Source: an uncultured virus (IMG/VR IMGVR_UViG_3300042502_001066) (taxonomy: Duplodnaviria; Heunggongvirae; Uroviricota; Caudoviricetes). Taken from it: a stretch of 64,000 nucleotides of DNA. How positions within the stretch are numbered: position 1 is the stretch's first letter; each line of letters starts with the position of its first letter. The stretch lies in the IMG/VR virus record IMGVR_UViG_3300042502_001066; one strand, given 5' to 3'. Positions 59,004-63,057 of this stretch are shown in pieces. The notes under the pieces were generated by a model, which saw only the letters and a list, made by a program, of their open reading frames with translations, did not search any database and was not told the DNA's origin. A program made the position numbers and the translations under genes.

Positions 59004-59414
59004 ATGAAACAAAGTGCAGGAATAATTGTAAAAGTAAATAACAGATGTTTAGTTTGTAAGAGAGCTGTCGAAATTAATGAACCATCAAAATGGGCAATAC
59101 CTATGGGTGGTATAGAAGAAGGTGAAGACCCAAAGGATGCTGCGTATAGAGAGTTCTATGAAGAGATGGGTGTTAGTGTTGATGGTGTCATTAAACCTTT
59201 ATCTAGAATTAATCGTTATAATAAGTTAGGACAGGTAAAAACAATTTTACATGTCTTTATTTTTAAAACCGATACTGAAATCATTCCGGATTTAGATGGA
59301 GCAGCGGATGGTTTTGAACACACAGAGTGCGCTTATATGACTTTAGAAGAAATTAAAGGACTTAATATGTCATCAGGTATTAAGGAAGTTTTAACTGATG
59401 TGTTAAACTTTTGA
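59004..59414 (+). CDS. Nudix hydrolase
   Basis: GGIEEGEDPKDAAYREFYEEMG Nudix box. Confidence 0.88.
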   Translation: MKQSAGIIVKVNNRCLVCKRAVEINEPSKWAIPMGGIEEGEDPKDAAYREFYEEMGVSVDGVIKPLSRINRYNKLGQVKTILHVFIFKTDTEIIPDLDGAADGFEHTECAYMTLEEIKGLNMSSGIKEVLTDVLNF

Positions 59415-59432
59415 TTTTTTTGATATATTTAT

Positions 59433-59463
59433 TTGACACTACGGAATATTCGCCGTAAGTTTG
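59433..59463 (+). promoter_or_regulatory. Promoter P1 of the giant RNA locus
   Basis: TTGACA-N17-TAAGTTTG. Confidence 0.8.
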
Positions 59464-59534
59464 TAAAAGATTTAACACTCATAGGGGATGAAAGATACTC
59501 GGTAGTTAAATCAAAAAAAAAGTTCACAAACTAC

Positions 59535-59565
59535 TTGACAGAAAGAAAAAAAAGTCGTAAGTTTG
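59535..59565 (+). promoter_or_regulatory. Promoter P2 of the giant RNA locus
   Basis: TTGACA-N17-TAAGTTTG; shares 20 identical bp (CGTAAGTTTGTAAAAGATTT) with P1. Confidence 0.8.
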
Positions 59566-59649
59566 TAAAAGATTTGAGATGAAGAGGTTGTAAAGATTCC
59601 TACTTCGGTAGGTTGTAAAGATTCCTCCTTCTTCTCTTTTTGAAAAAGC

Positions 59650-59661
59650 GTTCTTTGAAAC
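59650..59661 (+). promoter_or_regulatory. boxA-like antitermination element
   Basis: GTTCTTTGAAAC just after a leader hairpin, as in rrn leaders. Confidence 0.55.
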
Positions 59662-59669
59662 AAAAAGAT

Positions 59670-60557
59670 TATCCGTTCAGGAAACACAAAGTGTCGGTGA
59701 TATTATCCACCGAGTAAATGGCAGAAAGTCCGCAGCTTGAGTGTAACTGATAAACGATAATGGGCCGTGTATGGTCCTTAAATAAACTACGAAAGTAGGA
59801 TAAAGTGGTCTCCCCTGTGTTGAGGAGACTGCGGTTTGAAACCCCGTAAGGGGAATTGAACTCAAGTACACAAGTGGGATATCACCACACCGTAAGTACC
59901 GAGGATAACTTCGTAGGGAAAATGGTTGGGTGACTTGGGAAAGTAGATTCTCAAGTTGAGTTCGGAAGAACGATAAGAATAACCCATAGGAACTCTGTAA
60001 GAAATGTGACCATCCAGTTACACTATTGCGGGTCCCAATATGATAGAGGACTTAAAACCGAAAGGTAAGATGGAGAACGAGTGGTGTCGCTACTATCCCT
60101 AAGGAAGACCTACCAAGGTCTCTTTATGAAGTAATCTTGAAATATGGAGGTGGGGACACTTCACGGAGTAGTTTAGTATTCTGTCGCTCAAAAGGAGACA
60201 GAGCTTATGTTGGACCACTACTCTGACACATCTACAACACAACCCTAAAATTATTACAAAATAACAAAGGAAAAGTGTCCATCAGGTTTGAGTGAAAGGT
60301 GACTACATAGTAATGAGCCGTTCATTGCATACAGAGACCCCAAGTCAATGTGTATTGTTAAGAAAAACCTTTAGTCCCGCAAGGACGAACTGGGGTGGCA
60401 ACCTCGGAAAGAGTTAAGTACTGATAGAGTAATTCAAACCTCAAGGAGTGGTACACCTAAAATACCGTCACTAAGAAATACTACCCAAAAGGTGGTGGAT
60501 ACGAAGGGAAACAATAATCCTTCAAAAGTTTCTTAACATAAGCTGTAATCTCAGGCT
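59670..60557 (+). ncRNA. Large structured noncoding RNA, probably GOLLD-class (ends approximate)
   Basis: No credible ORF, GC-richer than flanks, many stems with GNRA loops (CTAC-GAAA-GTAG 59787, CCCC-GTAA-GGGG 59842, GTTC-GGAA-GAAC 59960, ACC-GAAA-GGT 60057), 3' TGTAATCTCAG hairpin, own promoters and terminator. Confidence 0.75.
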
Positions 60558-60567
60558 TTTCTAATCT

Positions 60568-60592
60568 GACCTGTCAATTGACGGGTTTTTTT
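60568..60592 (+). terminator. Intrinsic terminator of the giant RNA
   Basis: GACCTGTC-AATT-GACGGGTT plus T-run. Confidence 0.8.
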
Positions 60593-60613
60593 ATTTATAG
60601 ATACTTATAAACT

Positions 60614-62004: not shown

Positions 62005-63057
62005 ATGAAAAAAATTAAATTATTTCTTTTAACCCTTTTCGCATTCATTGGAATGAGTGCATCATCACAAGTATTAACGTCTTTTAACGTTGATATAATT
62101 AACCTCGGAGGATGTCCATACACATTGTTCGGAAACTATTATGGAGGTGGTATTCAAGGTAGTATTACTTTAACACAACAACCTACAGGAAGTTATGTTG
62201 CAGTTGTACCAGCAATTGATAGTCTAAATGTTAGTATCTGTGCAATTTATACTTCACCATGTTTAGGTGAGACTTGTATAAATGAAACAATATATCTTGG
62301 GTCAGGACAAGGTGTTCAGACATTTACGATAGTACTTCAAAACCAAGACTCAGATTTTGATGGGTTCATGGATAACATTGACTGTAATCCATTTGACCCA
62401 TATATCTATCCAGGGGCACCTGAACTATGTTATGACGGTATTGATAACAACTGTGATGGTTTAATTGAGGCAATGCCGACAATTGATACTCTGTACTTTG
62501 TTCCTGATTCACTTGTATCTGAACCAAACACTATTTACGTGGTTTACCAAGGTTCAAATACTGTAGAATGGGAATGGTTTTTTGGAAATGGAGGAAATGG
62601 GACGAGTTCAAACGAACAATACCCAACCATTACATTCCCTACCTCAACGTTTACTTCACAAATGCTCCCGATTAACTTATACGCAATTTCCATTAATGGT
62701 TGTCAGGTTTATACTTCAATAAACTTTTCAATTGATAGTAATGGAGTTTGGACACCGGGTGGAATTTTAAATGATTATACCTTAAACGTTGTTCCTGAAT
62801 TTATAATTGGGGTTGAAGAAACAATGACTAATAACGTTAAAGTTTGGCCAAACCCTGTGTTAGGTATTGTTAATATTAACACACCATCAAATAGTGGAAC
62901 GTTAAGAGTTATGTCTATCGACGGAAGATGTGTTCACCAAGAAAAATATTTTACTAACAACATTCAGTTTGATTCTGAAACATTAAGTAATGGAACTTAT
63001 GTTATTACTCTTACTGACGATAGTGGTAAGTTTTACACAACAAGAATTATTAAATAA
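62005..63057 (+). CDS. Secreted protein with MopE-like Cys/Asp motif, PKD-like domain and T9SS type A C-terminal sorting domain
   Basis: Signal peptide ending SS-Q; DC...PGAPELC.DGIDNNCDG; VWPNP...DGR...L.NGTYVI...RIIK. Confidence 0.8.
   Translation: MKKIKLFLLTLFAFIGMSASSQVLTSFNVDIINLGGCPYTLFGNYYGGGIQGSITLTQQPTGSYVAVVPAIDSLNVSICAIYTSPCLGETCINETIYLGSGQGVQTFTIVLQNQDSDFDGFMDNIDCNPFDPYIYPGAPELCYDGIDNNCDGLIEAMPTIDTLYFVPDSLVSEPNTIYVVYQGSNTVEWEWFFGNGGNGTSSNEQYPTITFPTSTFTSQMLPINLYAISINGCQVYTSINFSIDSNGVWTPGGILNDYTLNVVPEFIIGVEETMTNNVKVWPNPVLGIVNINTPSNSGTLRVMSIDGRCVHQEKYFTNNIQFDSETLSNGTYVITLTDDSGKFYTTRIIK

Follow-up and report, generated by a model that had tools for sequence, protein, structure and literature searches.

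Antitermination mediated by boxA elements is already well known from ribosomal RNA (rrn) operons, the nut sites of phage lambda, suhB, and CRISPR arrays. In rrn operons, the signal is located in the leader and the spacer, consists of boxB, boxA, and boxC, and involves NusB, S10 (NusE), NusA, NusG, SuhB, and S4. In phage lambda, boxA comes first in the nut site and is followed by boxB, which binds the phage N protein. A published study (PMC13753749) places the rrn boxA of Bacillus subtilis, AUGAUCUUUGAAA, directly after a small hairpin on its 5′ side, shows by NMR that NusB binds it, and gives the E. coli boxA consensus as UGCUCUUUAACA. The same study reports that boxA elements outside rrn operons, in gammaproteobacterial suhB and in CRISPR operons, shield long untranslated transcripts from Rho (PMC13753749). 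Those elements belong to cellular genes of Proteobacteria, whereas the case described here is a non-coding RNA gene in phages of Bacteroidota.

The RNA in question, GOLLD, builds RNA-only nanocages (PMC12286853). The published descriptions consulted are silent on its promoter, its leader, or any boxA (PMC12286853), and the terms boxA and antitermination occur zero times in the text of that cryo-EM study. Our literature search, whose reach ended short of the original 2009 description of GOLLD, yielded no paper that joins GOLLD and boxA. In two papers containing both GOLLD and antitermination, the latter term stood only in reference lists. The value of the present case lies in the biogenesis of GOLLD and in a definition of the boxA of Bacteroidota.

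The window analysed in this study is a stretch of 64,000 nucleotides (64 kb) from an uncultured freshwater virus of the Caudoviricetes (IMG/VR record IMGVR_UViG_3300042502_001066). It contains a gene-free gap of about 1.2 kb (59415-60613), in which the + strand has no open reading frame (ORF) of at least 50 amino acids and the − strand has two short ORFs only. The gap is bordered by a NUDIX gene (59004-59414) on one side, and by small ORFs followed by an endolysin-like gene on the other. An Rfam covariance search identified GOLLD (RF02032) with 322 bits versus a gathering score of 150, and the match comprised the full-length 3′ domain (window 60164-60557, model positions 1-416). The whole GOLLD RNA body extends from 59667 to 60557 on the + strand. 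It begins with a variable 5′ domain, alignable to relatives, whose first conserved helix (GATTATCC...) starts at 59667, and continues with the Rfam-modelled 3′ domain. An intrinsic terminator (60568-60596, + strand) follows, with an 8-bp stem at 60568-60587 and then a T run. As in published descriptions, this is a bona fide GOLLD in a phage, beside tRNAs in relatives; a tRNA search of the 64-kb window found none. Distant homologues were present inside the tRNA arrays of two uncultured phages with genomes of about 0.64 Mb. The region 59415-60613 is best explained as one non-coding transcription unit that makes the GOLLD RNA and is arranged like the leader of a Bacteroidota rRNA operon. The nearest record, a 46-kb viral fragment (G001), was identical over the locus and contained no 16S sequence, and the host rrn leaders were therefore taken from other genomes.

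An earlier note on this DNA had proposed that the giant RNA is transcribed like an rRNA operon, from two promoters 102 bp apart of the form TTGACA-N17-TAAGTTTG with a common 20-mer, followed by a leader hairpin and a boxA-like element, GTTCTTTGAAAC. Inspection of the window located all of these. Putative promoter P1 (59432-59463, + strand) consists of a TTTG/TTGACA element at 59432-59438 (TTGACA at 59433-59438), a 17-nt spacer, and the −7 box TAAGTTTG at 59456-59463. An A-tract together with putative promoter P2 occupies 59513-59565 on the same strand, with TTGACA at 59535-59540, again a 17-nt spacer, and TAAGTTTG at 59558-59565. The distance from P1 to P2 is indeed 102 bp, and the 20-mer CGTAAGTTTGTAAAAGATTT is identical at 59454-59473 and 59556-59575; it would span the predicted start sites. 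The leader hairpin lies at 59576-59636 and the boxA-like element at 59650-59661, both on the + strand.

What type of promoter P1 and P2 represent was judged from their −7 boxes. A scan for E. coli-type (sigma-70) promoters did not call either of them, because TAAGTT fits TATAAT at 3 of 6 positions only. They fit the Bacteroidota consensus, a −7 box TAnnTTTG with a −33 element TTG/TTTG about 19-21 bp upstream, and we read them as probable Bacteroidota-type promoters, not as matches to the sigma-70 consensus. By itself, TAnnTTTG occurred in the window at background level (116 versus 110). The composite TTGAC-N16-20-TAnnTTTG was found in 3 copies in 64 kb, P1 and P2 included, with 0.69 expected; 6 of 100 shuffled sequences reached 3 copies. 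The form CTTGACA-N17/18-TAnnTTTG is also present in 16S leaders of Spirosoma and Hymenobacter. A neighbouring + strand gene (62005-63057) encodes a protein that combines a metal-binding motif of the MopE type with a Por_Secre_tail domain at its C terminus; this domain is the sorting domain of the type IX secretion system (T9SS) and a marker of Bacteroidota. The TAnnTTTG promoters and the T9SS domain point to a probable Bacteroidota host, an assignment at the level of the phylum.

The tandem arrangement is common to GOLLD relatives and host leaders. The P1-type promoter unit recurs in GOLLD relatives, at least two promoters were found in 22 of 27 cluster representatives, mostly spaced 82-112 bp apart, and the end of the proximal −7 box lies 25-28 nt from boxA in 14 of the 27. 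Host 16S leaders contained at least two TAnnTTTG boxes within the 300 nt before boxA in 36 of 50 cases, versus 1 of 50 on the reverse strand, and the spacings of these boxes cluster at 93-119 bp. Besides boxA, the commonest words in the host leaders (L089-L209) were TACCTTTGCA-type −7 boxes and upstream AAAAAAGTT tracts. An A-tract followed by GTT, resembling the host tracts, is also located before the phage promoters (59513-59524).

The boxA-like element GTTCTTTGAAAC contains the 10-mer GTTCTTTGAA at 59650-59659 and would read GUUCUUUGAAAC in the leader RNA. One copy of GTTCTTTGAA is present in the window, with 0.39 expected and at least one copy in 36 of 100 shuffled sequences. Since a single copy is not significant alone, the significance of the motif comes from its conservation in related loci. 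A 21-nt anchor in the GOLLD 5′ domain retrieved 85 viral stretches, which together with the window and three earlier loci gave a first set of 89 sequences. On the RNA strand, 84 of the 89 have the word TTCTTTGA at a distance of 34-156 nt upstream of the anchor, as do 25 of the 28 clusters formed at 90% identity. One cluster (L011 and L036) has GTTCTTTAA in its place, and one GOLLD relative, L003 (LR756502), has no recognisable boxA motif. In L083 and L088, two putative GOLLD sequences that lack the motif, the anchor lies inside apparent coding DNA.

A pattern in the 3′ domain retrieved a second set of 119 stretches. With a minimum of 1300 nt of upstream sequence, 73 of these counted as full-length loci; 56 of the 73 lack the first anchor and are more divergent. 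GTTCTTT[GA]A was found at −900 to −650 in 54 of these 56 loci, representing 36 distinct contexts, and was missing from 2. In the controls (the reverse strand and two adjacent 250-nt windows) it was found in 0 of 56 each. The conservation upstream of homologous RNAs that the earlier note had named as a check on its proposal is therefore borne out by 84 of 89 and 54 of 56 loci; because the related loci share ancestry, these counts are not independent, and 28 clusters and 67 contexts are the fairer denominators. The flanks differ widely among loci while the boxA word stays constant. Since the motif is absent from L003 and from 2 of the 56 loci, boxA is not indispensable. An information-content profile used the motif as its own anchor, which makes it circular at positions 0-8, and it was given no weight. 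Across five large phage records the motif occurred genome-wide in 3-6 copies, versus 2-8 for the reversed control, and mostly inside ORFs.

Whether the host phylum uses the same word was determined from its own 16S leaders. A search with the 27F primer and a Bacteroidota 16S word gave 121 loci, including a few with non-Bacteroidota labels, all retained. Requiring at least 300 nt of upstream sequence left 104 different leaders (105 before de-duplication) for analysis. The most widespread 9-mer in these leaders was GTTCTTTGA, present in 47 of 104 and in 0 of 60 control stretches (−700 to −400). The 58 of 105 leaders that lack the exact 9-mer differ from the 10-mer by one (22 leaders), two (25), three (10), or four (1) mismatches. 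The close variants GTTCATTGAA, GATCTTTGAA, and GCTCTTTGAA are mostly located at a leader position similar to that of the exact copies. In each of the five genomes examined (5/5), the 16S-23S spacer contains a hairpin and, between it and 23S, a variant of the motif, namely GTTCTTTGAC in two, GTACATTGAC in two, and GATCTTTGAC in one. To occur in the leader and again in the spacer is characteristic of boxA. The host motif was named boxA for this position and for its resemblance to the elements of B. subtilis and E. coli, which makes the assignment a probable one; a single position separates GTTCTTTGA from GAUCUUUGAAA, which forms the core of the NusB-binding B. subtilis boxA. A scan of five whole Bacteroidota genomes for the 9-mer gave occurrences at chance level and was uninformative. 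After boxA, many host leaders and some GOLLD relatives have ATTGAA, a possible boxC-like element, where the window has ACAAAAAGATTA.

The phage motif is thus identical to the commonest motif of Bacteroidota 16S leaders and recurs as a variant in the 16S-23S spacer, which is how the comparison with Bacteroidota rrn leaders suggested by the earlier note turned out. The operon-like layout that it had drawn from the window, with two promoters in tandem at a distance of about 100 bp and a hairpin before boxA, likewise proved common to host rrn and GOLLD leaders. In both, the hairpin and a boxA predicted to be single-stranded precede a long structured untranslated RNA. Unlike an rrn operon, the GOLLD unit produces a phage-encoded RNA and not rRNA, the window has no identified GU-rich boxC, and the hairpin slot holds several unrelated modules; the function of the leader here is predicted from sequence.

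The hairpin slot was compared among loci. In the window, the leader hairpin encloses a smaller hairpin with UUCG, and its symmetric internal loops are made up of twin AGGTTGTAAAGATTCCT repeats (59585-59606 and 59610-59631). Folded alone, it has a predicted energy of −19.7 kcal/mol (z = −2.4; 4 of 200 shuffled sequences equally stable), and within a 135-nt context its z is just −0.81. It ends 13 nt before boxA. The same twin repeats, which can also be written GGTTGTAAAGATTCC or AGGTTGTAAAGATTCC, recur in L035 and L082, where an insert of about 100 nt stands between them and a covarying outer stem encloses the whole. This arrangement suggests either a self-contained RNA module or a site bound by a protein dimer.

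In most relatives a short hairpin of 4-7 bp takes the place of the long one. A perfect short hairpin ending 1-5 nt 5′ of boxA was found in 48 of 67 distinct GOLLD contexts, and its stems covary (TCGGA/TCCGA, TCAGG/CCTGA, CTTGGT/ACCAAG, and GTTACTC/GAGTAAC). A separate count gave a hairpin before boxA in 30 of 40 cases versus 72 of 800 control positions. Most of the other 19 contexts, the window included, have a larger stem-loop module before boxA. In host leaders a hairpin before boxA was only modestly enriched (27 of 76, versus 21% of control positions). The earlier note had set the window's hairpin beside the boxB-boxA leader of rrn operons. A hairpin does precede boxA in most loci, and to that extent the likeness holds; the long form in the window itself is one of several interchangeable modules.

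Stem-loop modules also occupy the space between the promoters. Module A (59469-59512, + strand), with the closing stem GATTTAAC...GTTAAATC, lies between P1 and P2 in the window and is kept in relatives, in some of them immediately 5′ of boxA. Inter-promoter modules are also present in L007, L015, L048, L072, L240, L245, L247, L248, L264, and L300. Three types can be told apart: A has GGTGATGAAAGATACTCGG in its closing stem, B has the form GAGA..AACGATTnAGATACAA..TCTC, and C is a longer GAGATTAAGG...AAATCTC. Their number and order vary, and in some loci they stand directly before boxA. Rfam gave no significant match for module A in the window's leader, and for the leaders of the window and its relatives taken together it returned only GOLLD, tRNA, and one group I intron. 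The intron (RF00028, 61 bits) is located at 624-811 of L039, beside tRNA genes and upstream of the GOLLD gene.

The phage leader also invites comparison with lambda nutL and nutR, where a phage transcript likewise carries a host-type boxA beside a hairpin and so obtains a termination-resistant host polymerase. Unlike in lambda, the GOLLD hairpin precedes boxA, as in rrn, and its sequence and loop are free to vary. A lambda-type nut site was considered and rejected on these two features, the hairpin being 5′ of boxA and variable in sequence and loop. The freedom of the hairpin sequence argues against a protein that binds the hairpin in a sequence-specific manner.

In some relatives the unit is repeated within larger arrays. 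In LR745206, a 634-kb phage, the tRNA array ahead of GOLLD opens with the same promoter-hairpin-boxA unit, and another hairpin-boxA stands between the final tRNA and GOLLD. By analogy, these two copies within a multi-RNA unit resemble the leader and spacer boxA of rrn operons. Two further arrangements were observed upstream of GOLLD. In L240, L257, and L033, the GOLLD unit follows in tandem on another promoter-hairpin-boxA unit, which belongs to a conserved non-coding stretch of about 150 nt beginning with GGTTACAGAAACAGTCTAGGTCCGTAGGGCTACTG. In L257, L243, L259, L290, L013, and L021, a promoter with a boxA-like word is followed first by a conserved, aromatic-rich ORF of about 50 amino acids (...YYY..G..Y.T...) and then by the GOLLD promoter. 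The presence of a boxA-like word before this small ORF indicates that its use is not limited to untranslated RNA.

The GOLLD body is abundant in RNA libraries. Fourteen runs recorded as RNA contain parts of the stretch, and contigs from four RNA-library studies cover 59672-60544 at a depth from tens to about 40,000, versus a depth of 0, or 3.7 in one run, at the flanking genes. The left edges of the contigs vary by run (59672, 59780, 59785, and 59786), with none upstream of 59672 in the four runs; these are assembled contigs and as such uninformative on transcript starts, transcript ends, or the presence of the leader. RNA contigs from relatives would not map to the variable 5′ domain. One contig has 13 adapter-like loose letters before 59672, from which nothing was inferred.

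The promoters, the hairpin, and boxA are present in the window, are conserved across GOLLD loci, and match host rrn leaders in sequence and order. Their overall layout suggests that the phage borrows the transcription machinery for host rRNA. We consider it likely that the 5′ end of the unit is a true boxA leader, a pre-rRNA-like end with which host Nus factors would make RNA polymerase processive over about 900 nt, possibly with a chaperoning effect. From these elements we infer the transcription starts, the binding of Nus factors, antitermination or chaperoning, and leader removal, as follows. Host RNA polymerase with the housekeeping sigma factor would initiate at the two strong promoters P1 and P2. 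In the nascent leader the hairpin would form, and single-stranded GUUCUUUGAA, a copy of the host rrn boxA, would then be exposed and could recruit host NusB-S10, along with NusG, NusA, and partners, to the polymerase during elongation. The complex so modified would withstand Rho-dependent and pause-driven termination across about 900 nt of untranslated RNA, and may also speed transcription and chaperone folding. Transcription would stop at the intrinsic terminator at 60568, and the leader would probably be removed like pre-rRNA leaders. Since a highly structured RNA is a poor substrate for Rho anyway, the need for antitermination is an argument and not a finding.

The main rival to a boxA leader is that the conserved word is a processing or stability signal shared with pre-rRNA, for example a ribonuclease site that sets the mature 5′ end of GOLLD. 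The motif lies just about 6 nt before the first GOLLD helix, and in LR745206, L017, and L045 it is located between tRNA and GOLLD, where cleavage must occur. The left-most RNA contig begins at 59672, right after the motif, a weak hint from one run, and contigs cannot show RNA ends. We regard this explanation as unlikely, as the same word occupies in rRNA leaders and spacers the characterised boxA position of E. coli and B. subtilis, and the B. subtilis version binds NusB directly (PMC13753749). Nor is processing exclusive with the loading of Nus factors, because rrn leaders do both. The word could also be thought of as a DNA site for a host or phage regulator, an operator or growth-rate control element of rrn and GOLLD promoters. 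In 14 of 27 cluster representatives the motif lies 25-28 bp past the −7 box, where an operator would typically be, and the promoter region is highly stereotyped. Elsewhere, however, the motif may be anywhere from 25 to more than 300 bp away from the promoter but keeps close to the GOLLD body, and it also stands after tRNAs with no nearby promoter (L002 and L017) and in 16S-23S spacers. Together with its strict strand specificity (0 of 56 on the reverse strand) and its non-palindromic sequence, this makes a DNA site very improbable.

Two further explanations place the conserved features within RNA structure. One holds that the word is a structural strand of GOLLD RNA, kept for pairing or tertiary contacts, as might be thought from its invariance and from its position adjoining the first helix of the 5′ domain. 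A complement of boxA in the GOLLD body or 3′ flank was found in 0 of 18 representatives, and duplex energies equalled those of shuffled boxes, which argues for a single-stranded element read by its sequence. Moreover, the word remains where the adjacent 5′ domain varies or is largely missing (L044 and L075), and is identical in host rRNA leaders, which are without GOLLD, so that a structural role is scarcely credible. The other explanation treats the long hairpin of the window and its U run (59576-59641) as a leader terminator or attenuator and not as a boxB-like element. TTTTT does follow the stem, but the terminator scan did not call this hairpin, the homologous module of L035 has no T run, and most relatives have a short hairpin followed by purine-rich spacers; an attenuator is accordingly very improbable. 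The operator, structural-strand, and attenuator explanations are each poorly supported.

The preferred reading, a true boxA leader, can be carried further. GOLLD and the RNAs transcribed with it (phage tRNAs and small modules) might constitute pseudo-rRNA operons, in which the rrn complex chaperones the folding of an RNA of about 900 nt and its assembly into the cage during transcription, and the very highly transcribed phage copies of boxA might titrate NusB-S10 from host rrn operons and so aid a late shutdown of ribosome synthesis. This extension is speculative, and we hold it to be quite unlikely.

The analysis yields a boxA consensus and a leader layout for Bacteroidota rRNA operons that are derived from data; no such description was found in the literature consulted. 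Of the roughly 110 related loci, more than 90% have kept a leader of the host type with its boxA. GOLLD is among the largest non-coding RNAs of bacteria and phages, and its boxA leader provides a testable handle on its biogenesis. If the boxA reading holds, the host polymerase and Nus factors would make GOLLD in the manner of an rRNA, which suggests host factors that may be added when the folding and assembly of GOLLD are reconstituted.
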